Below, piece after piece: positions 35-36,775 of a stretch of 64,000 nucleotides of DNA (the first letter of the stretch is position 1; the number at the start of each line of letters is the position of its first letter). A model generated the notes under the pieces. The model had not been told where the DNA came from. It made no database searches and was given only the letters and a program-made list of their open reading frames with translations. Location of the stretch: IMG/VR virus record IMGVR_UViG_3300035668_000001, one strand, 5' to 3'. The translations under genes were made by a program, and so were the position numbers. The DNA comes from an uncultured virus (IMG/VR IMGVR_UViG_3300035668_000001) (taxonomy: Duplodnaviria > Heunggongvirae > Uroviricota > Caudoviricetes).

Positions 35-454
35 ATGACCCCGTACGTCAACCCCGAACCCTTCGACCACCGCGTCAAATGGCCTGACGACCTCGACGAG
101 GCCGGGCAGGCACTGCCCGGTGACAGCGCTGACGCGCGGGCCCGGTGCCGCCACGCCATGGACGTGTTCGCCGCCGCCATCCTCACCGACGGCCGGCGGC
201 TCGCATTGGCCGTGTTCGAGCGGCCGCCCGATCACCCCTACTTGCGGGTCGCCCATCCCGGCGGTGTCGCGAAAGGCGAGTACCAGGTGTACCCGTACCC
301 GGACGTCGTCCGCGTCGACTGGCGGCCGTACACGATGCCCCCCGTCGTCCTCGTGGAGGTGATGACGCCGTCCGCCGCGCTGTCCGTCGTCCTCGACCAC
401 GTGTGCGGCATGCAGCCGTATGTGCCCGGCCCTGCATCCGCGGGTGACCGGTAG
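35..454 (+). CDS. hypothetical protein
   Basis: ATG ORF of 139 aa with GC3-rich codons and a purine-rich upstream tract. Confidence 0.6.
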   Translation: MTPYVNPEPFDHRVKWPDDLDEAGQALPGDSADARARCRHAMDVFAAAILTDGRRLALAVFERPPDHPYLRVAHPGGVAKGEYQVYPYPDVVRVDWRPYTMPPVVLVEVMTPSAALSVVLDHVCGMQPYVPGPASAGDR

Positions 455-10512: not shown

Positions 10513-10904
10513 GCATGTACGAAATGGTGTTCGGCACCGACGGCCGCGGCCGCGCAGAAGTCCTGCTGCCACTCCTCGGCAACCCCGACGTCGGCCGGTT
10601 CCGCGACTGCTGGATAGAGAAGGCACCCGACGGCGACCCGGTCATCGCCGTCTACACCCGCAACGGCGGCGGGAACCGGCCGGACTACGCCGACGTCATC
10701 ACCGCGCTCCAACAGCACGAGCTGTACCTGCGGGACACCGACGACGACTTCGATTCGACGTACGCCACGTTCTACTTCCGCACCCCGGCCAAGTACCGCG
10801 ACATGTTTCGGCAAGTCGCCGGCGACCCCGTGGACATGGACGAACGGTGGGCCGTCGCCATCGAGGCGATCGGCGGTGCGATCGACGGCACATCGGCGCC
10901 TTGA
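10509..10904 (+). CDS. conserved phage hypothetical protein
   Basis: ATGA overlap; RFRDCW...VYTRNGGGNR...DDDFDSTYATFYFR. Confidence 0.7.
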   Translation: MSMYEMVFGTDGRGRAEVLLPLLGNPDVGRFRDCWIEKAPDGDPVIAVYTRNGGGNRPDYADVITALQQHELYLRDTDDDFDSTYATFYFRTPAKYRDMFRQVAGDPVDMDERWAVAIEAIGGAIDGTSAP

Positions 10905-10944
10905 GCCCCCTCGACGGCCAAGCCCAAGACGACAGCGACACGCC

Positions 10945-11220
10945 ATGAGCCACCACCGCCGCGAACACTCTGACGTCTCCGTCATAGTCCCCGCCGGCGC
11001 CACCGGCCACCAGGCCCTCGTCGGCAAACAGCTCGCCATGCTGTCGGAGGGCTACTGCCCGTACGGCTGTGGGCGGCTCGACGTCCGCGACCCGCCCTGG
11101 ACGTACTGCTCGTGTTGCGACCGGTACCTGCGCACCTACACGGACGGCCGCGGGCCCGCCTTCGAGACGGTCGTCGGATGGTACTTCCGGGCCGAACCCG
11201 TCCCCGACGGCTGGTGGTGA
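10945..11220 (+). CDS. small Zn-ribbon protein, paralogue 1 of 4
   Basis: LSEGYCPYGCGRLDVRDPPWTYCSCC. Confidence 0.7.
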   Translation: MSHHRREHSDVSVIVPAGATGHQALVGKQLAMLSEGYCPYGCGRLDVRDPPWTYCSCCDRYLRTYTDGRGPAFETVVGWYFRAEPVPDGWW

Positions 11221-11226
11221 CCCCCG

Positions 11227-11466
11227 ATGAACTTGTGGGCCAGTATCGCCGCGGCGAGAGCCACCGGCAGGGCCGCCATATCCGAAGGCTTCTGCCCGGC
11301 CTGCCGCGGCCGCCTGCAACCATCCGACCCGCCCTGGCTGTACTGCCCCCCGTGCAGCCTGTCCTGGCATGTGACGGACGACGACGACCTACTGCTGGGG
11401 ATCGGCAAGAACCCGCCGCTGCCACCGCCGCGGCCGAGAAAGCCCCAGGCCAACAACGGAAGGTGA
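11227..11466 (+). CDS. small Zn-ribbon protein, paralogue 2 of 4
   Basis: ISEGFCPACRGRLQPSDPPWLYCPPC. Confidence 0.7.
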   Translation: MNLWASIAAARATGRAAISEGFCPACRGRLQPSDPPWLYCPPCSLSWHVTDDDDLLLGIGKNPPLPPPRPRKPQANNGR

Positions 11467-11471
11467 CGGAG

Positions 11472-11711
11472 ATGCCTCGACGCGATGATGCGGAAGCCGC
11501 GGCGACCGCCGCCTTGGCGAGCCACGTCCTGGCGCAGGTCTCCCTCGCGGAGGCCGCCCTGTCCGAGGGCTTCTGCCCGAAGTGCCACGGACGCCTGCGA
11601 CCCACCGAGCTGCACTGGCTGTACTGCCCCCCATGCGACCTGTCCTGGCTGGTGACGCGCGAGGGCACCCTGCTCCAGGCAGTCGGCGAGTACCCGCCGC
11701 CACCGCCGTGA
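11472..11711 (+). CDS. small Zn-ribbon protein, paralogue 3 of 4
   Basis: LSEGFCPKCHGRLRPTELHWLYCPPC. Confidence 0.7.
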   Translation: MPRRDDAEAAATAALASHVLAQVSLAEAALSEGFCPKCHGRLRPTELHWLYCPPCDLSWLVTREGTLLQAVGEYPPPPP

Positions 11712-11744
11712 GCGCCCCCGGGGGAACGACGGAAGGTGACATCC

Positions 11745-11975
11745 ATGGCCATGTGGGCCCGCGCCTCCTTCGCGAACGTCGCCCGCGCTAAGGCGTCCCT
11801 GTCCGAAGGCTTCTGTCCCGACTGTCACCACCGCCTGCAATCCACCGATCCGCCCTGGCTGTACTGCTCGTACGGCGAGATGTCCTGGCATGTGGCGGAC
11901 GGCCAGATACTGATGGCGGCCGGCCAGCACCCGCCGCCCCCACCGCCGCTGCGAGGGTCCCCATGGGAGACGTAG
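11745..11975 (+). CDS. small Zn-ribbon protein, paralogue 4 of 4
   Basis: LSEGFCPDCHHRLQSTDPPWLYCSYG. Confidence 0.7.
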   Translation: MAMWARASFANVARAKASLSEGFCPDCHHRLQSTDPPWLYCSYGEMSWHVADGQILMAAGQHPPPPPPLRGSPWET

Positions 11976-12080: not shown

Positions 12081-13067
12081 GTGGCTGAGAACACCGATAT
12101 CGAGCTGTCGACCACCTACGGGGTGGCCCTGCCGGGCGAGCTGGACACCCTCGAAGAGTACGAGGCCGCGTCGATCGCTGAGAACACCATCGCCGCGTAC
12201 ACGCGGGACTGGAACGCCTGGGTGGCCTGGTGTGCCACCCGGGGCACCAGCCCGCGGCCGGCCGACACGACGATGCTCGGCGTCTACCTCACGCAGAAGG
12301 CGCGCGCCGGGGTGCCTCCGACGTCCCTCGCCCGGTACCTCGCCGGGATCGGCCACTTCCACGAGGAGGCCGGGTACGACCGGCCCGCACACATCCCCGG
12401 GCTGCGGCGGATCATGCGCGGTATCCGGCACAAGGCGCGGGATGCCGGTATCCGGCCCGTGAAGGCGCGGGCACTGGACACCGACGCGATCAAGGCGCTC
12501 GTGTCCGACTTGCCAGCGGGCCGCGCCGGGGTCCGTGACCGGGCGGTCATCCTCGTCGGCTACGCCCTCGGGCTGCGCGTCTCCGAGCTCGTAGCGCTCG
12601 AGGCCCGTGACGTGAGCCCCGGGTACGGCGACGGCCTGGACGTGTACCTCGCCAGCGGCAAGACCGACCAGGAGGGCAAGGGCCGCACTCTCGCCTTGGC
12701 CCGGGGTACCCGCGTCGACACGTGCCCGGTCACCGCGCTACAGCACTGGGTCGCCGCCGCCGGCATCACCGAGGGCCCGATCTTCCGCCGCGTCTACAAG
12801 GGCACCGCGCAGACGGTCGGCGTCCGGCCGTTGGACGTGAAGTCGGTGCGGCTGATCTTGCAGCGCGCCGCCGATCGCGCCGGGGTGTCCTTGGAACGGC
12901 TGTCCCCGCACTCTCTGCGCGGCGGCCACATCACGACCGCGTACCGCAAGGGCACGTCCGAACCGAAGATGGCCGAGACGACGGGGCACCGTTCGATCCT
13001 CGTCATGCGCGGCTACAACGACTCCGAGCGGTGGGAGAACCCGTCGTCCGCGAACCTCGGCCTGTAG
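12081..13067 (+). CDS. Cre-like tyrosine recombinase
   Basis: Catalytic R (GLRVSE), K (GKTDQEG), HSLR, TGHRS, Y (MRGY); N-terminal 'NTIAAYTRDW' SAM-like helix. Confidence 0.92.
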   Translation: MAENTDIELSTTYGVALPGELDTLEEYEAASIAENTIAAYTRDWNAWVAWCATRGTSPRPADTTMLGVYLTQKARAGVPPTSLARYLAGIGHFHEEAGYDRPAHIPGLRRIMRGIRHKARDAGIRPVKARALDTDAIKALVSDLPAGRAGVRDRAVILVGYALGLRVSELVALEARDVSPGYGDGLDVYLASGKTDQEGKGRTLALARGTRVDTCPVTALQHWVAAAGITEGPIFRRVYKGTAQTVGVRPLDVKSVRLILQRAADRAGVSLERLSPHSLRGGHITTAYRKGTSEPKMAETTGHRSILVMRGYNDSERWENPSSANLGL

Positions 13068-13086
13068 CGGAACCTAGGCAAGCCCA

Positions 13087-13103
13087 TAAACCCCGTGTAC
13101 GAT
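13087..13103 (+). promoter_or_regulatory. putative phage promoter TAAACCCCGTG-TACGAT
   Basis: Matches the recurring motif; lies upstream of the operon leading into the TIGR-like locus. Confidence 0.65.
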
Positions 13104-13134
13104 CGGTCTTCTCGACAGCGACCGAGGAGTACCC

Positions 13135-13482
13135 GTGAGTGAAGCCCGAGGACGGACCCGGAGTATGGCCGCCGGGAAACCCCACCTCACCTGCGCCTGT
13201 GGCCGGGACGTGTGGAGCAACATCGGTATCGCCTCCCACCGGAAATCGTGTGAGGCGAGCTTGGAGCGGGACGGGTGGCCGATCGACGCGGGCATGGCGA
13301 AGGCGATCCGGGAGGAGTACCCGCGCAACGCCGCCCCCACCATCTTGTACGTGTCGCGTCAGCTCGGCCGCGTCTACCTTGAACGTCGCCGCGGCGGTGA
13401 CAACGCCGAGATGCCTTGGCGGGAGTACCGGGATCTCGTGTGGCAGCTCGCGGCCGAAGCACAGTCGCAGCCGGTGGCCTAG
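13135..13482 (+). CDS. hypothetical protein (CxC...HxxxC)
   Basis: GAGGAG RBS; 115 aa. Confidence 0.65.
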   Translation: MSEARGRTRSMAAGKPHLTCACGRDVWSNIGIASHRKSCEASLERDGWPIDAGMAKAIREEYPRNAAPTILYVSRQLGRVYLERRRGGDNAEMPWREYRDLVWQLAAEAQSQPVA

Positions 13483-13743
13483 GTGACCGCCTCCAAGGTG
13501 ACGTGCCCCCACTGCCGGAGTGCCGACCTGAACGTCATCGAGGACTGGTCCGGGTTCTCCATGTCGTTCCCGTCGGAGTCGTACACCGTCGGCCCCGACG
13601 GCGTGACGATCACCGGCGAGGGCTGGCTGCACGAGGGCGAACCGACCGGCCGGTACGTCTGGCGTTGCAACGACTGCGGCCACTGCTGGCGGATCCGGCG
13701 CGCGGTTGTCGTCGACAACTACGGCGAGGCGAGGCACCTGTGA
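13483..13743 (+). CDS. Zn-ribbon hypothetical protein
   Basis: CPHC...CNDC. Confidence 0.65.
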   Translation: MTASKVTCPHCRSADLNVIEDWSGFSMSFPSESYTVGPDGVTITGEGWLHEGEPTGRYVWRCNDCGHCWRIRRAVVVDNYGEARHL

Positions 13744-13994
13744 CCGATCCGACGATGCCCCACGTGACGGCCCCCGCCGTCCCGGTCATGGCGGGGATGC
13801 GCGACGCAAGCGTCCACAACCACCCGGGCCGGGCCGCCGTCTACCACGTCGTCAAGTACCGGGGCGACGTCCCCCACCCGGCGTGCAACACCTGGTCGCA
13901 AGTGGTCGTCGAGACGACGGTGCGGCCGGCTGAACGCGTCGAGCCCGCTTTGCGGTGTCAGGGTCACGGGTGCCGTAGCCGGTGGCCGCAGTGA
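13740..13994 (+). CDS. hypothetical protein
   Basis: GTGA overlap with the previous gene. Confidence 0.6.
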   Translation: MTDPTMPHVTAPAVPVMAGMRDASVHNHPGRAAVYHVVKYRGDVPHPACNTWSQVVVETTVRPAERVEPALRCQGHGCRSRWPQ

Positions 13995-14218
13995 CCGCCG
14001 TGTCCGGTCCCTCGAGCTCCCTCGACGGCCAGGGGTTACGCGTCACCCATCATGAGGCCGCCGTCGAGGGGCCATTTCACTCCCAGCCGACCATCGGTCC
14101 GGCGACGCCCATGGCGGACACGTCGGCTGGGCTTTACTCCCCGGCGGCCACATCCAGCGCGGCGCCCAATACGCTGCCGCCGCCGGGGCCCCACCCACAC
14201 CGTAGGGATCTGAGATGA
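13991..14218 (+). CDS. possible small ORF carrying three TIGR-like stem-loop units
   Basis: GTGA overlap with the upstream stop and ATGA overlap with the 14215 start; low-complexity product. Confidence 0.4.
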   Translation: MTAVSGPSSSLDGQGLRVTHHEAAVEGPFHSQPTIGPATPMADTSAGLYSPAATSSAAPNTLPPPGPHPHRRDLR

Positions 14219-14460
14219 CGGAGCAGAAGTCCGCGAAGGTGGCCGGGATCCGCCGGTACGGTGCCCGGCGGCGCGGCGCCCCCACCGACCCCCTCGACGG
14301 CCACGGCCTCGCCGTTGCCCAAGACAGCAGCGCCGTCGAGGGCACAGACTCCCCGGCGGCCACCACAGATCCGACACCCACGGCCGCCGCGCCGCCGGGG
14401 CCCACAGACACCTCGGCGGCCAACGAAGATCCGGCGCCCACAAGCAACGCGCTGCCGAGG
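14019..14460 (+). ncRNA. TIGR-like stem-loop guide array, 5' block (6 units)
   Basis: stem-CCA-N9-CG-N4-CCA-N9-CG-stem with first CCA at 14029, 14091, 14148, 14301, 14360 and 14420. Confidence 0.8.
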
Positions 14461-15807
14461 CCCAGCATCGCCGACCCCCTCCTGGCCTTGCTCGCCGACG
14501 CGGTCGACGACTTGGAGCGGACGAGGATCGCGAACGAGAACCGGGTCCGGCAGCTCACCCGCGCCGGGGAGGACAGTGACGGGGCGGAGCGCGGCTTCGG
14601 GCTCACCTTGGATCAGCCGCAGGTCGCGTCCCTCGCCCGGGTCGTCGCCGGGTTGGCGGACCTGGAAGCGGAGGCGGTGCTGAACCTGCGGCGCCGTCTG
14701 CGGCAGCACCCGCTGGGGGCGTGGATACAGGGGCAGGTGGGGATCGGGGAGAAGCAAGGTGCCCGCCTGCTGGCCGCGATCGGCGACCCGTACTGGAACA
14801 CCCTGTACGGGCGGCCGCGGACCGTGTCAGAGTTGTGGGCGTTCTGCGGCCTCCACGTTCTCCCCGCCGGCCAGCCACCACCCGTGGCCCATCTTCCTGC
14901 CGCCGGTGGGGACCAGACCGATCCCGGCCATAACGTCGTCGACGCCCAGTCAGCCCGCGCCGGGATCGCCCACGAGCCCCCCGCCGGCCAATGCGCAGAC
15001 GATCCCCATGGCGATCTCGTCGGCGGGGCACAGACCGACCCCGGCCAGGATGTCCACGACACCCAGGATGCGCGCGCCGGGGTCGCCCACGAGCCCCCCG
15101 CTGGCCATCACGGTACCGATGCCCATACAAGGTCCGCCGGTGGGGACCAGACCGACCTCGGCCATCCTCCCAGCGGAACCCATTCCAAGCCCGCCGGGGT
15201 CGCCCACGTACTCCCCGCCGGCCAAGCAGCCCTCGATTCCCATGTGTCGGGCGCCGGCGGGGCCCAGAACGGTCCCGGCCATAGCGTCGCCGACACCCAC
15301 TCACCTCGCGCCGGGGTCGACCACGAACTCCCCGTCGGCCATCACGCAGCCGATGCCCCTGGCAGGTACGCCGGCGGGGCCCAGACCGACCCCGGCCATA
15401 ACGTCGCCGACACCCAGTCAGCTCGCGCCGGGGTCGCACCATCACGGCAGCGTGGCCAGCGCACCAACTGGTCCACCGCCGCGAAGATGCGCGTCTACCT
15501 GATCGCCGAGACGTGCATCAAGTTCGACGGCAAACCCGACAAGAACGATCAGCCCCGTCCGCTGTCCCCGTACCGGGCCGTGTACGACGAAGGGCGGGCC
15601 AAGTACGCCGGGGCGGTCCACCCGGCCGTATGCCGCCGGTGCGGCCCGTCCGGGCATCCCGCGGCCGTGGGGTCGCCGTTGTCGCCTGGGCACCAGCATG
15701 CGCGGGGGCTGCGTCTGGTGATGAAGGCGATCCTCCGGGACTTGTGGATCGAGGCCCGGGGGCTCCACGGCGACCACGCGGCGACCACGCGGCGACCATG
15801 CCCATGA
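14215..15807 (+). CDS. IS110-Tnp/Nop-domain protein lacking a nuclease domain (TasA-like), with in-frame repeat insertion
   Basis: Coiled coil DDLERTRIANENR; HhH-like GIGEKQGARLLAAIGD; ELWAFCGL; RQRGQRTNWS; SPYRAVYD; HARGLRLVMKAILRDLW; no DEDD/RuvC N-terminus. Confidence 0.82.
   Translation: MTEQKSAKVAGIRRYGARRRGAPTDPLDGHGLAVAQDSSAVEGTDSPAATTDPTPTAAAPPGPTDTSAANEDPAPTSNALPRPSIADPLLALLADAVDDLERTRIANENRVRQLTRAGEDSDGAERGFGLTLDQPQVASLARVVAGLADLEAEAVLNLRRRLRQHPLGAWIQGQVGIGEKQGARLLAAIGDPYWNTLYGRPRTVSELWAFCGLHVLPAGQPPPVAHLPAAGGDQTDPGHNVVDAQSARAGIAHEPPAGQCADDPHGDLVGGAQTDPGQDVHDTQDARAGVAHEPPAGHHGTDAHTRSAGGDQTDLGHPPSGTHSKPAGVAHVLPAGQAALDSHVSGAGGAQNGPGHSVADTHSPRAGVDHELPVGHHAADAPGRYAGGAQTDPGHNVADTQSARAGVAPSRQRGQRTNWSTAAKMRVYLIAETCIKFDGKPDKNDQPRPLSPYRAVYDEGRAKYAGAVHPAVCRRCGPSGHPAAVGSPLSPGHQHARGLRLVMKAILRDLWIEARGLHGDHAATTRRPCP
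14861..15435 (+). ncRNA. TIGR-like stem-loop guide array, intragenic block (10 units, 57/60-bp alternating period)
   Basis: First CCA at 14871, 14928, 14988, 15045, 15105, 15162, 15222, 15279, 15339 and 15396; variable 9-nt spacers, invariant CCA/CG (one CCC variant), complementary stems. Confidence 0.85.
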
Positions 15808-15823
15808 CGAGGAGGCCCGCCGC

Positions 15824-16189
15824 ATGACCCCGAACCTGCCACTCATCGACGACGTCATGCACCACATCGACACCCACCCCGAAGAGTGGGACCAAACGCT
15901 TTGGTTTTGCGATACCACTGCCTGCTTCGCCGGGCACACCGCCCTCATCTCCGGACTACATGTGAACCGGAGGCTCAGCACCGTATTCGCGCCCGAGGAC
16001 CGCAAGTGGCGCAGGGCGGCAAGCGTGGCCGAGAAGCTCCTCGGCTTGGACTCTTGTACGGCCGACCGCCTGTTCTGCGCCGGGAACACCCTCGACGACC
16101 TGCACCAGGTCGTGAAGGAACTCCACGGCGCGCCCCACCAACCCCTCTCGTGGGAGCCGAAGCCGTTCGACGACGAGGAGTCGGCCTGA
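15824..16189 (+). CDS. conserved actinophage hypothetical protein
   Basis: GAGGAGG RBS; WDQTLWFCDTTACFAGH. Confidence 0.7.
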   Translation: MTPNLPLIDDVMHHIDTHPEEWDQTLWFCDTTACFAGHTALISGLHVNRRLSTVFAPEDRKWRRAASVAEKLLGLDSCTADRLFCAGNTLDDLHQVVKELHGAPHQPLSWEPKPFDDEESA

Positions 16190-16782
16190 TGCCTGGGGCG
16201 TGGACGTGGTTCCCGGCGGCCTTCTACGCCCTGTGCGGGGTCGGCGTGGCCCTCGCCGTCGCGCACGTTGTGCTCGCCTGGCGGTTTCTGCACGACGCCG
16301 CCAGGGCCGTCGCGCCGTGACCATCCACGTCGACCTGTCCAGCAGTGACCCGAAGGTCGAGTCCCTGCTGCGGCAGGTCGAGGCCCTGCCGATGGGCAGC
16401 TCGGCGCGGTCCGAATGCGAGGGCGCCCTGTACTTGGCGCTAGCCCGGGTGTGCTGGCGGGATGCCGACCGGTGCCGCGAGCTCGAGCGGCACCGCGCCG
16501 CACGCGACGCGAGGAGGGGCGAGGCGTGAGCCCCCGAGATCCGCAGTCCGAGATTCACGACATCGACATGGGCACCCCAGCCATGGGTACCCCAGTTCCG
16601 GTCGGCGGCTGGTACTGCGGTGTGCTCCGTGATGCCGTCGGCGTGGTGGTGTACCGCACCGAGCCGCGCCTGCTATCCGCCGGTGACACCCTCGCCGGCG
16701 GGCCCTTCCGCTGGGTCGGATCGTCATACTCCGGTGATATGCCAGACCCCTCCGCGCACCAACCTCCGGAAGGAACCGCCCC

Positions 16783-19011: not shown

Positions 19012-19556
19012 GACGCCCTCCTGGGGTGTGGGTTCCTGACGGGGGTCGCTCCCCACAGCAGGAGAATTCACGGTAGTCCCCCGGTCAGCCTCTCGAAAAG
19101 GACAAGACGCGGGACGTAACCGGTCCGCGGCGCGCATGGTGCCCGGCATGGGTACCGTCACGTCTCTCTCCGACGTCCGTGAGCGCCGCGCCGCCGCGAT
19201 CGCCTCGGTCGCGCCGATGCACCCCGCCTTGCGGTACTTGGTCGGCGGCGACGGCTCGGTCGCGCACCGGCGCACACCCATGGGCCGCACCGTGTGCGGC
19301 ACACCCGGGGACCTCTACGTGGCCCGCGTCGAGACGCCCTTGTGTGACGTCTGTTACGAGGGACGCGCCGGGTGACCCCCGAGATCCGTCCCGCTGCCGC
19401 GACCGTAGACGTCGTGTGGATCTGCACGGGGCCGTGCGGCCGCCCGATCCTCGTCCGGCTCCCGTTCCTGTACATCGACGACGTCACGACCGAGGCGATG
19501 TACGACTGGTGGGAACTACAGCGGGCAGGGGTCATGCATCTGCGGGACTGCGGCCG

Positions 19557-21317
19557 GTGAGCCCCGTCCGGGCGGCGTCCCGGACCCCGCCCCCGGGCCG
19601 TGACGCCCTCTCCCCCGGCGCGAAGCGGATGCTCGCGGACCTCGCCGCGTTACCCCCGACCGTCCGGCGGGACATCTACCGGAACATGGGGGAACGGGAC
19701 CTGTCCGTTCTCCTCGCCGTGTCCGAGGTCCAACTCGGCACGCCGTACGGGCTGTGGGTCGACGACCCGGCCGGGTTCATCCTCGACGTCATCGGCGACG
19801 CCTTGTGGTCCATGCCGACGCGGATCGCGGACACGGTCACCACCGCGCGGAAAGTCGCGGTCCCGTCGTGCTACGGGTCCTCGAAGACGTGGACTAGCGC
19901 GAGATTGGCGGTCTGGCATTCGTTCGTGCACCCGCCCGGGACCGCCCTGACAGTCACCCTCGCGCCGAAGTGGCGGCAGGTGGTGCGCCTCATCTGGCCC
20001 GAGATCAGGCGGGCCCACAAAAAGGCCGGGCTGCCTGGGCACGCCGACATGGCGCAGTTGAAGATCACCGACCGGACCGGGCTGGACCACGTCGTCGCGT
20101 ACGGGCTCGCGGCCGAACCCCGCGACGAGTCGGCCGTGCAGGGCATCCACGCCGCCGGCGGCGTGCTCCTGATCGTCGAGGAGGCGGGGGGTATCCACGC
20201 CACGATCGGGCGAAGCATCCTCGGCGCGTTGACCGGCGCCGACTCCCGCATGCTGGCGATCGGGAACCCGCCGACGTCGGACGAGGGCGGCTGGTTCGAG
20301 GAGTTGTGCGCCGCTGACGACGTCGTCACCATCCCCATCACCGCACAGTCGACGCCGAACCTGTCTGGGGAACGGCCGGTCCGGTGCCACACGTGCCCGC
20401 CGACGGCGCCGGTGCACGCCTTGTCCAACCACTTGATCGACCAGCAGTGGGTGGATGACGCGATCCGGGACAACGGCATCGACTCGCCGTACTGCCAGGC
20501 CAAGATTTTCGCCCGGTTCCCGAAGGGCGGCGGGTCGCGGATCATCCCGTCCCAGTGGCTCGACGGGGCACTGGACGTGCAGGCCACCGAGCCGGACGCG
20601 GAGCCGGGGCAGTCGGTGCGGCTGTGCGACCTCGGGCTGCCGGACGAGACGGACCCGTGGGTGGTGGCGTACGGGGCGTGGATCCGGCTCGGCGTCGACG
20701 TCGCGTCCGACGGCGGCGACGAGTTCGTGGTGGCCCGCCAGGTTGGGGACCTGGGGACGATCGAGCACTACTCGGCGGGGGCGACGAACGCCGATGCGAT
20801 CAACGTCGCCGGGAAGGTGCTGGTGCAGATCCGGCGCGCGGAGGCCCTCCGTGCCGCGATCGGCTCGGAGGCGCAGATCCGGGTGAAAGTCGACGTGATC
20901 GGGCTCGGGTGGGGCGTCGTCGGGGCCCTCACCGCGTGGGGCAAAGAGGGGGTCCACGACGCGGCCATCGTAGCGGTGAACGTCGCGGAAGCTACGGACC
21001 GTGAGCCCGATGGGACGTCGATGATTCCGGACCGCAAGCGGGACGAGCTGTGGCTGACGGGGCGCACGTTGGTGCAGCCGGATCCGCGGACCGCAGAACC
21101 ACAGGTGCGGCTGCGGGTTGACAAGAAGACTGCGTCCCAGTTGCGCGGCCCGAAGTACGGAACGACTATGGCCGGGGGCCGGATCAAAGTCGAGTCGAAG
21201 AAGTCGATGCGGGAGCGGGGCCTGTCGTCGCCGGACCGGGGGGAGGCTTGGCTACTGTGCGTATACGAGCCTGCGCCGCCGCGTGACGCCAAGAAGAAGG
21301 CTCGGCTAGTCGCTTGA
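19557..21317 (+). CDS. terL: terminase large subunit
   Basis: Walker A-like SCYGSSKT, Walker B LLIVEEAGG, IGNP coupling motif, nuclease LGVDVA and SPDRGEA; precedes the portal gene. Confidence 0.9.
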   Translation: MSPVRAASRTPPPGRDALSPGAKRMLADLAALPPTVRRDIYRNMGERDLSVLLAVSEVQLGTPYGLWVDDPAGFILDVIGDALWSMPTRIADTVTTARKVAVPSCYGSSKTWTSARLAVWHSFVHPPGTALTVTLAPKWRQVVRLIWPEIRRAHKKAGLPGHADMAQLKITDRTGLDHVVAYGLAAEPRDESAVQGIHAAGGVLLIVEEAGGIHATIGRSILGALTGADSRMLAIGNPPTSDEGGWFEELCAADDVVTIPITAQSTPNLSGERPVRCHTCPPTAPVHALSNHLIDQQWVDDAIRDNGIDSPYCQAKIFARFPKGGGSRIIPSQWLDGALDVQATEPDAEPGQSVRLCDLGLPDETDPWVVAYGAWIRLGVDVASDGGDEFVVARQVGDLGTIEHYSAGATNADAINVAGKVLVQIRRAEALRAAIGSEAQIRVKVDVIGLGWGVVGALTAWGKEGVHDAAIVAVNVAEATDREPDGTSMIPDRKRDELWLTGRTLVQPDPRTAEPQVRLRVDKKTASQLRGPKYGTTMAGGRIKVESKKSMRERGLSSPDRGEAWLLCVYEPAPPRDAKKKARLVA

Positions 21318-22215: not shown

Positions 22216-22218
22216 CCC

Positions 22219-24711
22219 GTGGCCTTCTTCCCGACCCTCCTCCCCCGCGGACGGCGCAGCACCGAACAGAAGGTGCTGCTGTCGGACTACTACAGCACGC
22301 TGATCAACGCCGGGATCGACGTCCACACCCGGTCCAAGCCGTGGCCTGTCGAACGCGCCGTCGCCGAGGGGTACGAGCGGGTCAACCTCGTATTCCGGTC
22401 CGTGAACACCATCGCCGGGGACTGCGCTCGGCGGGACATTCCGTTCCGGTTCCGGGAGGGCGACAAAGTCCTCGACGACCACCCCCTCTACCGGCTGCTG
22501 AACCGGCGCGCGAACCCGATGGAGGACTCGCACGCCTTCCGGACCCGCCTCGTGTCCCAGATCCTGCTGTCCAAGCGGGGCGCGTTCGTCGAAGAAACCC
22601 GCTCCAACGGCGGCACCCCCGTGCGCTTGGACCTGCTGCCACCCGGCCGGACCCGCATCGTGCCGCCGATGAACGTCACCACCACGCAGGCCATGACCGC
22701 CCGCGACACCGGCAACGACCTGATCGACCACTACGAGGTGTGGCGTAACGACGGGTCCCGGTACGACATCGACCCGGAGCGGGTCCGCTGGTTCCGTAAC
22801 CCGCACCCGTTGGATCCGTACAGCGGAACCACCCCCCTCGAATCCCTCGGGTTGACGGTCGAGCTCGACTATTTCGCCCGCCTCTACAACACCCGCTTCC
22901 TGCGCAACGACGGCCGCCCCGGTGGGGTGCTGGCCGTCAAGAACGACATGGAAGACGACGGGATGGAGCAGCTCGAGGCCCGGTTCGGGAAGGGCCCGAC
23001 GGAGGCGGGCAAGCTGTCCGTCATCGCCGGCGAGGTGTCGTACGTCGACCTCGCCGCCCGCCCCAGGGACATGCAGTACGGGTCGCTGGCGAAGGTCACC
23101 AAGGACGACCTGTTGGTCGGGTTCGGCACCCCGGAGTCGGTCATGGGCAACGCCGCGGGAAGAACTTTCGACAACGCCGAGAACGAGGCGTACATCTACT
23201 GGTCCCGCACCGTCATGGGCTCCCTGTCCCTCGTCGCCGCGGGGTTCGACGACGACGCGTCCGACGACCTCGAGCCGTTCTTCGACACCGAGGCCATCGA
23301 CGTCCTGCAACTGCCGGTCCGCAAGAGGCGGGAGGAGATGCGGCTCGAGGTCACAGACGGGCTCCGGTCCCCCAAGTCGTACGCGGACGCCGCCGGGTAC
23401 GGCCACGAGATCGAAGACACCCCGAAGACACGGGCCTTGCGGCAGCCCGCTGGCGTCACCCTCCTGGCTGTGCGGGCGGACGACGAGGACGCTCTGGCCC
23501 CAGCGGCACCGTCCGGCCCCACCGTGCCCGGCCCGGCCCTCCGGGGCGCCGTGGTGCCCGAGAGCACCCCGCCGGGCACGACCCCGCAAGAGGACACGGC
23601 CCCGTCCGCCGCCAAGCCACCGCCGGGCAACACCTTCCTCGCGGGTGGCGCCCGCGCGACCCCAGCCGCCGCCGATACACCCGCCACCCCAACGGCGACG
23701 CCCAAGGGCGACGAGCAGAAGAGGCTGCCGCAGCCCACATCCCGGGTCGTCGTCCCCATCAACATCAAGGCCGCCGCCGCGCAGTGGGTCGACGTGTCCC
23801 CCGCCGACACGGAAGCCGACGCGGAGGCGAAGATCGGGGACGTTCTCGCGAAAGTGATGGACGGCTGGCTGTCCCGTGCCGTGGCCCGCGTCAAGTCCCC
23901 GAAGACGCGCAAGGGCACCAGGCACTGGAAGGCCGACGGGACGCTGCCCGCCGACACCCGCGGCGGGCACAAGGCGCTGGACGTGGCCTACGCCGCCGAC
24001 GAGGACACGACCGCGAAGGAGATCGACGCCAAGACGCGGCCCCTGGTCGTCGACGCGGCACTCGCCGCCGCCGCCGCCTACCTCACCGCCGCCGGGCCCG
24101 CCCTGCTGGGAGGCGCCGAACACAAGGCGAGGGCGAAGCAGCCACCCGAGCTCGACGCGCTCGTGGCCGCGATGCGCGACGGCGCGAAGATCACCGTCGA
24201 CATGATCCCCCCGGACGTCGGCAAGAGGATCCGGGACCGGGCGCAGGCGATCGTGCCGCACCTCGACGCGGGGGCGCGGGGTCAGATCCGGACTGCTGCG
24301 CGCGCGGCCGCGGCGAAGGACGCCGACGGAGGCACGGTCGAGGACATCGTGGCGCAGCTCGAGGACCGCCGGGACGCCGTCGAGCAGTGGGCGCGCGCCG
24401 CGGCCGCGGACGCCGCCGGTGCCGCCGCAGCGGTCGGACACGACTTGGCCGCCGCGCAGGTACAGAAGGCCCTCGGTGGGGACGTGTACCGGCAGTGGTT
24501 CTCCCGCCACGACGAGAAGACGCGGGACACGCACCGCGGGGCACACGGGCAGCGGCGGGACATCGGGGTGCCGTTCAAGGTCGGCGCGGCGTCGTTGCAG
24601 TACCCGAAGGACCCACTCGGGCCGCCCGGTGAGGTGAAGAACTGCCGGTGCCACGCCATCTACCGGCACCGCCGGTCGGGCCGGTTCGACTTCGAAGTCG
24701 CCGCGTCGTGA
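22219..24711 (+). CDS. portal protein fused to a C-terminal head-morphogenesis (MuF/SPP1 gp7-like) domain
   Basis: HK97-type portal motifs (HPLYRLLN.RANP, FLRNDGRPGGVL, FGTPESVMG, TFDNAE); C-terminal QWFSRHDEKTRDTH...HGQ...YPKDP...EVKNCRC. Confidence 0.9.
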   Translation: MAFFPTLLPRGRRSTEQKVLLSDYYSTLINAGIDVHTRSKPWPVERAVAEGYERVNLVFRSVNTIAGDCARRDIPFRFREGDKVLDDHPLYRLLNRRANPMEDSHAFRTRLVSQILLSKRGAFVEETRSNGGTPVRLDLLPPGRTRIVPPMNVTTTQAMTARDTGNDLIDHYEVWRNDGSRYDIDPERVRWFRNPHPLDPYSGTTPLESLGLTVELDYFARLYNTRFLRNDGRPGGVLAVKNDMEDDGMEQLEARFGKGPTEAGKLSVIAGEVSYVDLAARPRDMQYGSLAKVTKDDLLVGFGTPESVMGNAAGRTFDNAENEAYIYWSRTVMGSLSLVAAGFDDDASDDLEPFFDTEAIDVLQLPVRKRREEMRLEVTDGLRSPKSYADAAGYGHEIEDTPKTRALRQPAGVTLLAVRADDEDALAPAAPSGPTVPGPALRGAVVPESTPPGTTPQEDTAPSAAKPPPGNTFLAGGARATPAAADTPATPTATPKGDEQKRLPQPTSRVVVPINIKAAAAQWVDVSPADTEADAEAKIGDVLAKVMDGWLSRAVARVKSPKTRKGTRHWKADGTLPADTRGGHKALDVAYAADEDTTAKEIDAKTRPLVVDAALAAAAAYLTAAGPALLGGAEHKARAKQPPELDALVAAMRDGAKITVDMIPPDVGKRIRDRAQAIVPHLDAGARGQIRTAARAAAAKDADGGTVEDIVAQLEDRRDAVEQWARAAAADAAGAAAAVGHDLAAAQVQKALGGDVYRQWFSRHDEKTRDTHRGAHGQRRDIGVPFKVGAASLQYPKDPLGPPGEVKNCRCHAIYRHRRSGRFDFEVAAS

Positions 24712-26363
24712 CGGGGCCGTCGTTGTTCAGCGTGGGTGGCGTGGAGTACGAGATCACGCCGGTCGACCCCGCCGGCGCGAAGTCGTGGACCACCGGCGGG
24801 GTCCGGTACGAGGTGAAGGGCCTGTTCACCTCGGCCTTGCATCCGCGGGACGGGCACGGCCGGTTCGTGCGCGTCGGCGGGACCGTCCACCTCCCCGGCG
24901 GTGGCACCGGAACCGTGTCCGCGATCGGGGACGGGAAGAAGAAGGGGAAGAACGGCGTCGTCATCCCCCGCGGGCACGTCGAGGTCACGAAAGCCGGGGC
25001 CGGGTCGGTGGTCGTCACGCCCGGCAAGCTCAGTGTCGCGAGCCCGAAGAAACCCGCTGCGAAGCTGCCGCCCGCACGTCCCGCCCCTCCGGGTCCGGCA
25101 ACCCCCGCGGGCATCACTGTCGGCGACCGCATCCACTCGTGGACGTCCGCCCGCGGCGGCCCCGCGATCGGCATGGGCGACCGCACGGTCGTGTCGGTGG
25201 TGCCGAAGAAGGTCGGGAAACGCGACGCCTTCCACGTCACCTTCTCCGACGGGGTCGAGGTGGACCTTCCCGCCGACGCCACCATCGGCCACGCCGCCGA
25301 GCCGGGGGACGGCAAGGTGTCCCTTCCCGCCGGCCACCGGGTCACGATGCCGGACGGCACCCACGGGAGGGTCGTCGACGTCGACCACGGAAAGGTGAAC
25401 GTCGAGGTCGCTGTGCCCGGCGACGGGCCGCGAACCGTCACGGTGCCCGTCGCCGCCGTCGCCGTGGTGCACCGCACCGGCGCGAAGGGTGACGCGGTCA
25501 AGGGCGATCCCACGGAGATGAGCCAGGAGGAGTACGCCACCCACCTGACCCGCGTCGAAGCCGTCCTCGACCAGGCGGTCGAGGACGGCCAGACGACCGA
25601 CCAACTGCACACTGTCGGGAAGGACGAGAAGGGCCGGGATGTCTACACCAAGGCCCGCGTCGAGCAGCATCAGCGGATCATCGACAAGGTCACCCGGGGG
25701 TGGGACGAGGTGCCCAACGGCGGGAGGGCGGTCATCGCCGGCGGGCTCGGTGGCGCCGGGAAGTCGACGGTCCTCGGCAAGTACGCGGGCATCGACCAGT
25801 CGCAGTACGCGACGCTCAACCCCGACGACGTCAAGGAACTCATGGCCGAGGCGGGCATGATCCCGGACGTGTCCGGGCTGTCGCCGATGGAGGCGTCCGC
25901 ACTGGTCCACGAGGAGTCGTCGCACATCGTCGGGATCCTCGCCGAGATGGCGTACCGGCAGAAGAAGAACGTCATCTGGGACATCACCATGTCCGGGCAA
26001 GATTCGGTACAGAAGCGCATCGACGACCTGCGGGCCAGCGGCTACGGGTTCATCAACGGCGTGTTCGTCGACATCCCGGTGGAGACGTCGGTGGTCCGCG
26101 CGTTGGGCCGACACCGCCGCGGCGCGGAACAGTACCGGGCCGGTGAGGGGGCCGGGGGCCGGTTCGTGCCGCCCCACATCATCCGCAAGAACAACCCGAC
26201 CCCCGGCTCGACGGCGCAGTCGAGGAACCGGGAGGTGTTCGACGCGCAGCGGGTCCAGTTCAACAGTTGGTCGGTGTACGACAACTCGGGGACGGCCCCG
26301 GTGCTGACCATGACGGGCATTGGCGCGGAGACGGGTCAGCCGCCCCCGTTCGGGGCTGGCTGA
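24708..26363 (+). CDS. protein with C-terminal zeta-toxin-family P-loop kinase domain
   Basis: GGLGGAGKST, LNPDDVKE, VHEESS, NVIWDIT, GRFVP, VYDNS; N-terminal HPRDGHGRF motif. Confidence 0.82.
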   Translation: MTGPSLFSVGGVEYEITPVDPAGAKSWTTGGVRYEVKGLFTSALHPRDGHGRFVRVGGTVHLPGGGTGTVSAIGDGKKKGKNGVVIPRGHVEVTKAGAGSVVVTPGKLSVASPKKPAAKLPPARPAPPGPATPAGITVGDRIHSWTSARGGPAIGMGDRTVVSVVPKKVGKRDAFHVTFSDGVEVDLPADATIGHAAEPGDGKVSLPAGHRVTMPDGTHGRVVDVDHGKVNVEVAVPGDGPRTVTVPVAAVAVVHRTGAKGDAVKGDPTEMSQEEYATHLTRVEAVLDQAVEDGQTTDQLHTVGKDEKGRDVYTKARVEQHQRIIDKVTRGWDEVPNGGRAVIAGGLGGAGKSTVLGKYAGIDQSQYATLNPDDVKELMAEAGMIPDVSGLSPMEASALVHEESSHIVGILAEMAYRQKKNVIWDITMSGQDSVQKRIDDLRASGYGFINGVFVDIPVETSVVRALGRHRRGAEQYRAGEGAGGRFVPPHIIRKNNPTPGSTAQSRNREVFDAQRVQFNSWSVYDNSGTAPVLTMTGIGAETGQPPPFGAG

Positions 26364-26753: not shown

Positions 26754-27683
26754 TCACTCTGTCGCGCGCCCGGTGGTGTCGGCCGGGGTGTGCTTGCCGG
26801 TGATGTTGTCGTACGGGACGGTGTCGGTCCACGAGTAGCCGGTTTCGACGCTCACCGACTTCTTGTTGACCCGGGTGATCGGCCCGCGCCACGTGCCGCG
26901 CACCTTCGCCCAGTCGCCCTTGGTGAAGTCGTCCGGGCCCCAGATCTTGAACCCGTCGGCCTCGGCCTGCGCGACGTGCGCCTTCCAGCCCGCGATGTCC
27001 TCGACCAGGCGGGCCCGGCTGGTAGCGTGCCATTCGATCGCCCGGGCGCGGCTCTCGTCGGTGGTGGCCTTTGCGATGTTCCGGTCGATGCCGCGGAGCT
27101 CGGCCTCGAGCGTGGCGATCCGGCGGATCGTGGTCGGGATGTTCTTGCGGTGCTGCTCGTACCGTGCCGCCGTGTCGGACGCCTCGGCCAGGCGCTTGGC
27201 CTTGGCGCCCTCTTCGAACGCGCGGCGTGTGCCGTTGTGGACGCGTTCCATGTCCCTCTCGGCGCCGCGCTGCGAGTGGTGGCCGAGCAGGATCGGCTGG
27301 CCGCCGGCGAACCGCTCGGAGATCCGGTCGGCGCGCTCGTGGGCGGCCTCGCTGCGTGCGGCCGCGTTCTCGGCGTACCCGGCCAGCCGCTCGGCCCGGT
27401 CTTCGGCGCGGGCGACCTTGTCGTCCTCCCGTTCGTCGAAGGTCCGCGTCTCGGCGGTGATGTCGACTTCCACCTCGAACCCGGCTGCGCGCAGTGCGGT
27501 CGCGGCGGCTTCGATGCGGCCGGTCTGTGCGGCCTTGTCGCGGGACTGGCCGATGCCCCACAACTTCAACGACGGGAACCAACGGAACCGCTGGGCCTTG
27601 AGGACTTCGGCGGTGCCGTCGCCCTTCGCAGTGCCGTAGACGAGGGTGCCTTCCGCCGGGCTGTGGCTGATCGTGACCGTCAT
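26754..27683 (-). CDS. DUF3560 domain protein
   Basis: ITISHSPAEGTLVYGT; GQPILLGHHSQR; TVPYDNI. Confidence 0.85.
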   Translation of the reverse strand: MTVTISHSPAEGTLVYGTAKGDGTAEVLKAQRFRWFPSLKLWGIGQSRDKAAQTGRIEAAATALRAAGFEVEVDITAETRTFDEREDDKVARAEDRAERLAGYAENAAARSEAAHERADRISERFAGGQPILLGHHSQRGAERDMERVHNGTRRAFEEGAKAKRLAEASDTAARYEQHRKNIPTTIRRIATLEAELRGIDRNIAKATTDESRARAIEWHATSRARLVEDIAGWKAHVAQAEADGFKIWGPDDFTKGDWAKVRGTWRGPITRVNKKSVSVETGYSWTDTVPYDNITGKHTPADTTGRATE

Positions 27684-27704
27684 CGTCGGACTCCTCCATC
27701 AAGA

Positions 27705-27749
27705 GGCGGGGTCGCTCCCGCCCACACCACTATTGTACATGGGGTTTAG
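27705..27749 (-). promoter_or_regulatory. putative phage promoter (-10 TACAAT) plus leader motif
   Basis: Minus strand: CTAAACCCCATG-TACAAT-AGTGGTGTGGGCGGGAGCGACCCCGCC. Confidence 0.75.
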
Positions 27750-27804
27750 AGGCGTGGGAAGTGGGCCGCGACACTACCGACTGCGATGGATCACCGTGCA
27801 TCGC

Positions 27805-29202: not shown

Positions 29203-29211
29203 CCCGACGGC

Positions 29212-32177: not shown

Positions 32178-32304
32178 CGGTCTCGGGGCGCGGGCCATGA
32201 CCCAGCCACCTCGCCCGGGGTAGTCGGTCCGCGACACTACGTGCTCGGCGTACCTACCGTCCGCCCCGTGACACGCATCTGCGTGTCGGGGCGGAGGACC
32301 AGCG

Positions 32305-36555: not shown

Positions 36556-36775
36556 CCCCGGGTGGGGTGGATGGGTGTCACCGAAATAAAGTTGTCACTG
36601 GGCCAAGACGCTACGTAGCCACCGCGTCTACGGTGCGCATCACGAGCCTTCGGGTGTCCCGGTACTGACCGGGCGGGTCCGGTGCTCGGAACCCCAGCAC
36701 ACCCACCCGACCCTGCCTGTGCGCCCACTTCCCCGAGGCGCGCCGCAGGGGACACCCGCGTACGGAGTGAGTCCC

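Follow-up and report, generated by a model that had tools for sequence, protein, structure and literature searches.

Systems of the TIGR-Tas kind bind DNA under RNA guidance, are compact and need no PAM. The reference for the dual-repeat TIGR-TasR/TasH systems is Faure et al, 2025 (PMC12045711); in that paper, TasR caused plasmid loss rather than a block of plasmid uptake, and a part in how mobile elements are inherited is proposed. In solved Tas complexes, the coiled coil is the element that serves dimerisation and on which the heteroduplex rests. Stem-loop arrays are the subject of a preprint from September 2026 (Xu et al, bioRxiv 10.64898/2026.09.09.750476), which reports both intragenic arrays in tas genes and TasA as a repressor: such arrays can lie within tas with the frame unbroken, the guides of Bifidobacterium longum BlTasA sit in the wedge loop, and TasA acts as a repressor on a reporter and gives a shift of target DNA, repression being the only TasA activity tested. 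It also gives the TIGRFinder rule (tandem units, two 9-nt spacers each flanked by CNA/YG boxes, and a stem of at least 5 bp), a modal loop length of 9 nt for stem-loop arrays, and a CUU motif at processing sites at the stem base. The preprint further names the natural targets, guide maturation and spacer origin of TIGR-Tas systems as open questions.

The window analysed here is a whole 64-kb (64,000-nucleotide) stretch of DNA from an uncultured virus. The only sequencing run found to contain it is one soil DNA metagenome, and no RNA run was found with it. Surrounded by phage genes (integrase, terminase, portal and capsid), the locus very probably represents a phage-borne stem-loop TIGR-Tas system of the nuclease-free TasA type that carries guides inside its own gene. 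It is an extreme case of an arrangement already in print; intragenic guides themselves are not new. The features of the locus are collected in Table 1.

Table 1. Coordinates of the tasA gene, its guide units and its protein segments in the window.
Feature	Positions	Strand	Basis and remarks
Weak 78-aa ORF	13982-14218		covers t1-t3; its stop overlaps the tasA ATG
Units t1-t3	14018-14071, 14080-14133, 14137-14190	+	grammar scan; covariance model 49.6-56.5 bits; upstream of the tasA ATG
tasA ORF	14215..15807	+	open frame of 530 aa, running through the internal array
Units t4-t6	14290..14462	+	grammar scan and covariance model; 5' ORF part for predicted disordered residues 1-85
Coiled-coil hairpin, helices 88-115 and 135-164	14476..14706	+	pLDDT above 90; aligned to the TasR/TasH coiled coil
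C-terminal-domain helices 1-3, including GIGEKQGARLLAAIGDPYWN and RPRTVSELWAFCGLHV	14707..14862	+	invariant columns; aligned to 9mty 144-213
Intragenic array, units t7-t16	14860..15438	+	ten units alternating 57 and 60 nt; predicted in-frame disordered insert
C-terminal-domain helices 4-7 and 13-aa tail	15439..15807	+	RGQRTNWS..K.R.YL.AE.C.K and YR.VYD.GR.KY; pLDDT 90-97
H-x3-C-x2-C-x16-H-x-H element, residues 469-495	15619..15699	+	candidate zinc knuckle between the last helices

The ORF at 14215-15807 was confirmed to encode a nuclease-free TIGR-associated Nop-domain protein, TasA. When a profile of 60 homologues was compared with PDB sequences, it matched TasR (9mty_A, E 1.9e-18) and TasH (E 2.6e-7) and nothing else below E 0.2. 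A structure prediction, which the sequence-only reading had called for, returned a Tas fold: the model matches TasR 9mty_A with Z 18.2 (rmsd 2.8, 184 residues aligned) and TasH 21kl_B with Z 18.1, so that it has a Nop-type domain akin to that of solved Tas proteins, made up of a coiled-coil hairpin and a helical C-terminal domain. Fold matches begin at model residues 84-88, and the part before them is predicted to be disordered (pLDDT 36-59 for residues 1-80). Residues 1-85 are predicted to be disordered and are too short for a RuvC domain; neither HNH nor RuvC was found N-terminal to the Nop domain, which is the mark of the TasA subtype, and the two small ORFs upstream of tasA match neither nuclease. 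A Pfam scan of the 530-aa protein gave a single family at E <= 1, Med3 (E 0.42), which is a chance match. The profile search, the fold match and the array grammar, together with the lack of any RuvC, HNH or DEDD match, thus agree with the earlier proposal of a TasA-like protein without a nuclease. The coiled coil and motifs listed in that proposal are likewise present in an open 530-aa frame and mostly conserved across the family (GIG at residues 176-178, LWAFCGL at 207-213 and R.RGQRTNW at 411-419). Its Zn-like insert near the C-terminus proved to be a constant feature, H469, C473, C476 and H493 being invariant in 60/60 aligned homologues; gp74 of Mycobacterium phage BPBiebs31 and gp50 of Gordonia phage Spooky have the element too.

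Guide units were located with a grammar scan modelled on the TIGRFinder rule. There are 16 stem-loop TIGR units in total: 3 upstream of the ATG, 3 in the 5' part of the ORF (spaced by 59 and 60 nt) and 10 in the wedge loop. Each consists of a 9-11 bp stem around CCA-N9-CG-N4-CCA-N9-CG, that is, box C (CCA), 9-nt spacer A, box D (CG), a 4-nt linker, a second box C (CCA), 9-nt spacer B and a second box D (CG). All 15 units found by the scan have the CCA/CG/CCA/CG boxes with a 4-nt linker; the 16th, t15, is degenerate by one box change (CCC replaces the second CCA). The tandem units, spacers, boxes and stems are thus those of a stem-loop array as the TIGRFinder rule defines it, and the '2+4+3' arrangement of a unit gives a 9-nt 'loop', the modal length in the preprint. 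Tandem Repeats Finder reported the region 14901-15437 as 4.6 copies of a 117-nt period, which the grammar scan splits into the ten units of roughly 57 and 60 nt. Elsewhere in the 64 kb, the scan found only 2 weak look-alikes on both strands, and in a motif-only census of the 64 kb, 21/23 matches on the + strand fell inside 14029-15427, with 1 match on the - strand. A covariance model built from the same 16 units that it scores gave them 49.6-60.5 bits, with the next best match in the window at 23.6. Two covariance matches, at 40967 (23.6 bits) and 47318 (20.2 bits), were rejected as units because their boxes are missing. Rfam returned no family at E <= 1 over 13000-16500, and a promoter and terminator scan gave 0 promoter-like sites and 1 terminator-like site (- strand), which is chance level.

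Translated in frame, the array would form an insert of ~190 aa (residues about 217-408), disordered in the predicted model. Counted from the end of the coiled coil, the helices on either side of it are the third (H204-210) and the fourth (H421-436). The region of helices 4-7 that follows aligns to 9mty 216-262 and 269-297 and to TasH 193-281. The insert-bearing loop is the Tas wedge loop, and at the level of helix order the model supports its correspondence to the S241 loop of IS621; S241 is borne by the loop that joins Tnp helices 3 and 4 (PMC11208158). To this extent the analysis agrees with the sequence-only reading, which had put the array at the IS110 catalytic-loop position. That reading also called the loop dispensable, which does not fit the solved Tas complexes, where the wedge loop separates the DNA strands. 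As for its idea that guides are stored in the loop, ten units are indeed there; the six further units outside the insert had been missed.

Among known systems, the dual-repeat TasR and TasH (9mty; 9w04, 21kl) are the closest solved structures (Z 17-18) and the sole significant profile matches. They share with the phage TasA the coiled coil and C-terminal domain, dual 9-nt spacers, CCA and a YG-type box D. The phage protein differs in having no RuvC or HNH, in guides that are stem-loops rather than 36-nt dual-repeat units, in a C-terminal tail of 13 residues after the last helix, and in the additional HCCH element. A truncated CTD5 without the Tyr/His processing loop is a mark of the stem-loop Tas clade; the short tail would fit such a CTD5, and the phage protein probably lacks the processing loop that dual-repeat Tas has. 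BlTasA, as described in the preprint, is likewise a nuclease-free Nop-domain protein. Systems of its type resemble ours in placing some units ahead of the gene and others within it, where they lie at the wedge loop, in frame and in a disordered segment, and in their actinobacterial or phage setting. Two loop units are described for BlTasA, compared with ten here, and the CUU boundary motif given for these systems is nearly absent from the phage array (CUU in 1/13 short linkers; CUC in 5/13). More distantly, Nop5, Nop56/58 and Prp31 show a fold similarity of Z 6-8 (Nop5 1nt2_B, Z 8.0), which is within the chance range of helical proteins. Box C/D RNPs also resemble the phage system in their guide RNA, which has two guide segments as well as elements like boxes C and D. 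The Nop protein of these RNPs has a fibrillarin-binding N-terminal domain and works with L7Ae and fibrillarin, whereas for the phage protein no partner of either kind is apparent; by homology to Tas, its target would be DNA rather than RNA.

By analogy with characterized Tas proteins, the product most likely works as a TasA dimer in RNA-guided DNA binding or repression. The RNA-guided binder or repressor proposed by the sequence-only reading matches the TasA data of the preprint (10.64898/2026.09.09.750476). No target was found in the window for any of the 16 spacer pairs with 2 mismatches or fewer, gaps of 0-2 and both strand topologies (A + rc B; rc A + B) allowed, beyond array overlaps and one chance-level match: of 4 matches, 3 overlap the array and 1 lies at 47355 with 2 mismatches. 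A search of 307 units against their own related loci gave 3 matches at <= 2 mismatches, and the only independent match in an own locus at <= 1 mismatch was at position 908 of L007/L008 (duplicate records), with 1 mismatch; a control against other loci gave 5 two-mismatch matches in a 2.4x search space. We estimate that a collection of hundreds of gigabases would yield tens of chance matches per 18-mer, and the preprint cautions on false positives in target searches (10.64898/2026.09.09.750476). The lack of a self-target in the 64 kb of phage would suit targets elsewhere, and hence an RNA-guided binder with an output other than repression, such as excluding rival phages or plasmids through a block of their replication or inheritance, or tethering another factor. 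The position of the BPBiebs31 gene near a repressor and a superinfection-immunity gene points the same way, as do the plasmid loss and the suggested inheritance role of TasR (PMC12045711). We nevertheless regard such an output as unlikely, considering that repression is the only activity tested for a TasA and that there is no conserved partner gene: 0/9 window neighbours recur in 71 related loci, which also leaves without support the partner acting in trans that the earlier note had entertained.

The unit stems covary. Stem cells are paired in 84.1% of cases versus 65.4% in shuffles, and the nine pairs adjoining the boxes are formed in 16/16 units, but the choice of the ten wedge units required stems of 6 bp or more, which builds in part of their pairing; this bias spares only unit t15 and, among the nine pairs, the outer three. 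Two-sided changes occur in 27 stem cells, which was matched by 0/500 shuffles. The spacers differ from each other nearly as random sequence does (pairwise identity 0.29, random expectation 0.27), while the stem-and-box frame has an identity of 0.75, rising to 0.88-0.91 within unit types. Related loci share no spacers with this one, the closest unit being 6/18 apart and inside the background distribution. Within the array, spacer differences between unit pairs run through 2, 3, 5, 7, 8 and 9 of 18 up to the random level of ~13. At the low end of this series are near-duplicate wedge units: t8 and t16 differ at 2/18 spacer positions, and t14 and t16 at 3/18. These three near-duplicates (t8, t14, t16) and the wedge unit with a degenerate box C could mean that in a true TasA only t1-t6 function, the wedge units being a tolerated in-frame expansion, a disordered linker or functionless. 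Among distinct viral relatives, 32/54 have no unit in the loop, so that the family can do without wedge units. Such a division into functional and idle units still seems improbable to us. Boxes are perfect in 9/10 wedge units, the 9-10 bp stems carry compensatory changes, and the wedge units score 52.2-60.5 bits, as high as those outside. In addition, t10 and t16 have identical frames and differ at 9/18 spacer positions, which looks like maintained guides, and intragenic units of BlTasA were seen as processed RNAs in the preprint (10.64898/2026.09.09.750476).

Relatives bear on whether the insert is translated. Across 69 related viral loci (574 kb), 331 units lie on the gene strand versus 5 on the opposite strand. 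In phage BPBiebs31, gp74 is preceded by two units. The loop and frame could be compared in 54 of 66 distinct loci, the 12 with unplaceable motifs being omitted; 22/54 have 1-3 units in the same loop, and loop lengths step by whole in-frame units (13-18, 32-37, 46-55, 68-73 and 94 aa). As 3/6 frames are stop-free across the insert here, the open frame alone is weak evidence of translation; the conserved continuity of the frame in relatives is the stronger argument. The insert has a GC content by codon position of 0.85/0.59/0.76, unlike the cores and with no look of coding selection, and ten guides take up 36% of the ORF. Ten stable GC-rich hairpins in a run, in a segment where half of the frames are open, might instead split the gene in effect, processing or ribosome failure in the insert leaving the N-terminal half only or two polypeptides. 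This is very doubtful, as both halves share one frame without a stop across the match in 52/54 distinct loci, in steps of whole units, the Nop-type fold needs both halves, and no in-frame start carrying the conserved RGQRxNW segment follows the array. The preferred reading remains a single TasA translated through its guides, with the frame probably intact because the array grew by in-frame duplication of 117-nt blocks (57 + 60 nt).

IS110 bridge recombinases (IS621 8wt6/8wt9; ISCro4 9t56) share the coiled coil and helical C-terminal fold at Z about 13 (13.1-13.3; model residues 84..518 align to IS621 125..314 with Z 13.1). A further likeness is the position of the array insert in the phage TasA, in the helix 3-4 loop that carries the catalytic S241 in IS621. 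In place of a tandem guide array, IS110 has a single bridge RNA. Neither the DEDD RuvC domain nor the PF02371 Tnp domain with a conserved Ser in the helix 3-4 loop was found: PF01548 (the N-terminal DEDD RuvC-like domain) has no Pfam match in the 530-aa protein, PF02371 is absent from it and from 10 insert-poor homologues at E <= 10, and no invariant Ser occurs in the columns between G212 and V407 of the homologue alignment. The transposase label of phrog_4285 in PHROGs (E 1.6e-88 to the tasA product), the RefSeq transposase annotation of the family members BPBiebs31 gp74 and Pinto gp70, and the fold similarity to IS621 could suggest a degenerate IS110-type recombinase remnant in which the repeat is protein low-complexity without an RNA role, but we give this almost no credence, given the missing domains and serine, the closer structures of TasR and TasH, the covarying stems, the codon-position GC of the insert and the identical units that stand outside the protein frame (ahead of the ATG here, and past the stop in relatives). 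The view of the sequence-only reading that the protein is not a transposase is thus supported.

By analogy with described TIGR-Tas systems, transcription of the locus would run rightwards, and processing would release the units as stem-loop tigRNAs of about 50 nt. One tigRNA would be bound by a TasA dimer, as expected from homology, and an 18-bp site would be recognised through pairing of spacer A to one of its strands and of spacer B to the opposite one. Lacking a nuclease, the complex may then occupy the site and block transcription or another DNA transaction. An mRNA that has given up its internal guides would no longer be translatable; since guide excision would end translation, the supply of guides and the supply of TasA from one transcript would compete. 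As a tentative extension, which we hold to be possible though not probable, the tasA transcript has this dual use and the array records the origin of its spacers by 117-nt duplication and drift. If so, TasA binding to the hairpins of its own mRNA would set the level of protein versus guide, a built-in feedback with no CRISPR counterpart, and spacers would arise by block duplication followed by point-mutation drift with stems and boxes conserved, which would explain spacer origin for the clade without acquisition machinery.

With ten units in a 206-aa loop, where 54 relatives have no more than three units and 94 aa, this is the most extreme case found of guides within an effector ORF, and it gives a measure of how large an insertion the wedge loop can take. 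The series within the array, from near-identical to fully diverged spacers, bears on spacer origin, and the gene is a natural test case for competition between guide excision and translation on one transcript. The family also occurs in phages in culture that infect Mycobacterium smegmatis or Gordonia terrae, where it is annotated as 'transposase' or 'hypothetical'. These annotations could be corrected, and the presence of the family in such phages makes these questions testable in laboratory hosts.

The window has a G+C content of 70%. Tandem Repeats Finder identified a 117-nt period in 4.6 copies at 14901-15437, and a repeat finder returned four 234-nt copies at 117-nt intervals, with consecutive GC-rich segments of about 29 nt that are mutual reverse complements. 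In the published rule for stem-loop TIGR arrays, a box C (CCA, CGA, CTA or CAA), a 9-nt spacer and a box D (TG or CG) form an interval, and two such intervals lie at most 15 nt apart with a flanking stem (10.64898/2026.09.09.750476). We scanned the entire window on both strands with this rule and additionally required ≥6 bp of perfect stem. This yielded 15 units on the + strand at 14029-15427, every one of which (15/15) reads CCA-N9-CG-N4-CCA-N9-CG with stems of 9–11 bp; in a sixteenth unit, at 15339, the second CCA is replaced by CCC. The rest of the 64 kb held just two weak look-alikes (mixed boxes, 6–7 bp stems). Without the stem filter, the bare motif was found 23 times on the + strand (21 within 14029-15427) and once on the − strand, and the three matches outside the array have stems of 0–1 bp. 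By this grammar, the repeat at the tasA locus is a stem-loop TIGR array.

The array stem shows covariation. In the alignment of the 16 units, 84.1% of stem cells pair (65.4% in shuffles) and 27 show changes on both sides, values that were reached by 0/500 shuffles; sliding the partner by 1–3 columns lowered pairing to 33–61%. Nine box-adjacent pairs are formed in 16/16 units, with six of the nine imposed by the stem filter in 15 units, so independent support for the stem comes from the three outermost pairs, from unit t15 and from the compensatory changes. A covariance model trained on the 16 units scores them at 49.6–60.5 bits by construction and gave no score above 23.6 bits in the rest of the window, where the two best extra matches have no boxes. 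The spacers are hypervariable, with a mean pairwise identity of 0.29 versus a random expectation of 0.27; identity in the stem-and-box frame is 0.75 overall and 0.88–0.91 within two unit types.

A Pfam search with the 530-aa tasA product found no domain, and its PHROGs assignment is phrog_4285 (E 1.6e-88), a family labelled “transposase”. It has at least 1318 relatives at E ≤ 0.001 (5.8 billion proteins searched, 8000 candidates scored), some of them in Streptomyces and Kitasatospora records; no Pfam domain was found in these relatives, and all named ones are “hypothetical”. Alignments of 16 and 60 sequences have two conserved blocks with a length-variable segment between them. Against solved chains, the 60-sequence profile matched 9mty_A (TIGR-TasR, E 1.9e-18) and TasH chains (E 2.6e-7), followed by the next match at E 0.24. 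In the AlphaFold model, pLDDT exceeds 90 at approximately residues 90–190 and 420–520, while residues 1–85 and 216–418 are disordered. TasR and TasH were also ranked top by Foldseek, though its E-values were weak, half of the model being disordered. Re-scoring with VIA-align, which considered only Foldseek’s top-ranked chains so that folds missed by Foldseek could not show, gave Z 18.2 for TasR (9mty_A; rmsd 2.8, 184 aligned, 28% identity), 15.9–18.1 for TasH (21kl_B and others), 13.1–13.3 for IS621 and ISCro4 (8wt6, 8wt9, 9t56) and 8.0 for Nop5 (1nt2_B), with all matches starting at model residues 84–88. As there is no domain before the coiled coil, the protein represents the nuclease-free form of Tas, TasA; the nuclease-less TasA-like effector proposed in the sequence-only reading is thus borne out, TasR and TasH being the top matches by both profile and fold. 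H469, C473, C476 and H493, which are invariant in 60/60 sequences and also present in two cultured-phage homologues, may bind zinc.

The catalytic S241 of IS621 sits on the loop that joins Tnp helices 3 and 4 (PMC11208158). The variable segment maps between 9mty residues 213 and 216 in the profile alignment, and the predicted helices after the coiled coil are 168–173, 179–189, 204–210, the insert, 421–436, 454–464 and 491–517, an order that puts the insert in the loop joining helix 3 to helix 4. For Tas proteins, this is the wedge loop, to which intragenic tigRNAs also map in Bifidobacterium longum TasA (10.64898/2026.09.09.750476). The earlier placement of the array at the IS110 catalytic-loop position is backed by this helix order and by the overall superposition with IS621, and the finding as a whole was real and correctly read.

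Positions of array units, tasA and phage genes in the window
Feature	Coordinates	Strand	Remark
Tyrosine integrase	12081-13067		
t1-t3	14018-14190	+	5' of tasA ATG
tasA	14215-15807	+	530-aa ORF
t4-t6	14290-14462	+	in ORF part for residues 1-85
t7-t16	14860-15438	+	within tasA gene
Large terminase	19077-21317		
Portal fused to Mu-F-like domain	22216-24711		
Prohead protease	32272-34500		
Capsid protein	36590-38080		

The intragenic units alternate 57/60 nt, so all intragenic spacings are divisible by three; spacings outside this set are 62, 57, 59 and 60 nt. G+C by codon position is 0.85/0.59/0.76 in the insert, unlike the structured parts of tasA (0.76/0.47/0.93 and 0.69/0.57/0.88), which follow the usual high-GC pattern; the RNA rather than codon choice thus seems to determine base composition in the insert. 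The tasA ORF is open throughout, but as 3/6 frames are stop-free over the insert, its open frame is by itself weak proof. Considering that the disordered residues 1–85 are built from units t4–t6 and that some homologues are annotated with starts immediately before the coiled coil, the true tasA start codon is uncertain. A putative 78-aa ORF (13982-14218; third-position GC only ~0.79) is made nearly wholly of t1–t3, and its TGA overlaps the tasA ATG (ATGA). CUU is described as the boundary motif of stem-loop arrays (10.64898/2026.09.09.750476). Here, the short linkers have CUU in 1/13 and CUC in 5/13 cases and instead share CAGAC- or CCACGA-like words. Between the wedge units (14913-15396), a 7-nt word (ACCAGAC, CACAGAC, CCCAGAA, CCCAGAC) alternates with a 10-nt word (CCCACGAGCC, CCCACGTACT, ACCACGAACT); these conserved words could be processing marks that replace CUU in this clade.

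The same grammar was applied to 69 related loci from viral contigs (574 kb), giving 331 units on the gene strand versus 5 on the opposite strand, with CCA/CG/CCA/CG boxes in 272/331 and a 4-nt linker in 292/331. After three duplicate records were dropped, 66 distinct loci were left, of which 54 allowed the two flanking motifs to be located in a single frame (the remaining 12 were omitted), and 52 of these 54 are stop-free across the match. Loop length in the 54 loci is quantised, at 13–18 aa without a unit (29 loci), then 32–37, 46–55, 68–73 and 94 aa, and 22 loci have 1–3 units in the loop. The window’s loop, at 206 aa and ten units, is more than twice the largest of these relatives, and its protein is the longest among the 120 homologue matches listed. 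None of nine neighbour genes recurs in 71 related loci; with no conserved partner visible, tasA and its array are, judging by gene neighbourhood, a self-contained travelling module.

In the phage collection, 90 records have a homologue (83 Mycobacterium, 5 Gordonia, 1 Rhodococcus, 1 Arthrobacter). BPBiebs31 gp74, a RefSeq “transposase”, is homologous to TasA, carries the HCCH element and has a short loop; two stem-loop units lie upstream of it in the 338-nt gp75-gp74 gap of this Mycobacterium phage (2128-2360 of locus L070). Both the repressor (gp80) and a superinfection-immunity gene (gp78) lie within a few genes of it. In Gordonia phage Spooky, the 5' part of gp50 contains four units, and the gp50 loop one weak unit (5-bp stem).

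The array may have been enlarged via duplication of 117-nt blocks. Spacers differ at 2 of 18 positions between t8 and t16, 3 between t14 and t16, and 5 between t8 and t14; most unit pairs differ at 12–15. Units t10 (15034-15087) and t16 (15385-15438) have identical stems, boxes and linker with spacers that differ at 9/18 positions, a pattern that does not agree with plain neutral divergence and points to either spacer turnover or frame homogenisation.

Its integrase, packaging and head genes mark the window as phage DNA. Sequence identity between the capsid protein and its counterpart in the 129-kb Streptomyces phage Gilgamesh is 42%, the TasA-bearing contig is 140 kb (the window being 45% thereof), and the sole run containing the tasA stretch is a soil DNA metagenome. 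Closely 5' of the integrase, four tandem small ORFs at 10876-11975 (10876-11220, part of 11112-11711, 11227-11466 and 11736-11975) form a paralogous zinc-ribbon-like set, each with the same SEGFCPxCxGRLxPxxxxWLYCPPC-like four-Cys motif, which precedes a Pro-rich tail. In the head module, an ORF at 24633-26363, immediately after the portal/Mu-F gene, has a Zeta-toxin/AAA_33 kinase domain (E 4.3e-17), and the portal-protease interval also encodes a 2'-5' RNA ligase/LigT-like protein (27640-29202) as well as a sigma-70 family factor (29203-29862).

TIGR-Tas was described in 2025, with tigRNAs excised from arrays and bound by Tas dimers, and with spacer A base-paired to one strand, spacer B to the opposite strand, of an 18-bp, PAM-free site (PMC12045711). 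TasA and dead TasR are reported to repress transcription in a spacer-dependent manner and to shift target DNA (10.64898/2026.09.09.750476). Taking this activity together with the fold, family, guide grammar, stems, variable spacers and in-frame position, the locus is most likely an RNA-guided DNA binder with 16 guides in a large Streptomyces-type phage. Excising a guide from the ORF would destroy the mRNA, so guides and TasA may compete for one transcript. No targets of the 16 units were found in the window, where several would be expected if most guides were aimed at the phage, which makes it unlikely that most guides serve self-regulation, considering the 64 kb (45% of the 140-kb contig) examined. 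For units of the relatives, no targets were found near their own loci beyond one near-match. In related locus L007, the unit at 3952 has a dual spacer that matches an 18-bp site at 908, allowing for 1 mismatch and a 2-bp gap (topology A + rc B). This site, also present in the duplicate L008, is 3 kb upstream on the viral contig that carries the unit and falls within a 554-aa ORF (566-2230). As the sole independent near-perfect self-match among 307 units, it may be due to chance.

Many TIGR-Tas loci occur in tailed phages, for which a mycobacteriophage review is cited (PMC12045711); among the papers searched, none joined TIGR-Tas with mycobacteriophages or actinobacteriophages. The preprint of September 2026 reports tas genes with internal stem-loop arrays that preserve the frame and correspond to disordered segments; it also covers guides in the BlTasA wedge loop and repression by TasA, and the window’s contig may already be among its 20,096 tas loci (10.64898/2026.09.09.750476). 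The tasA locus is an extreme case of this already described in-gene guide arrangement.
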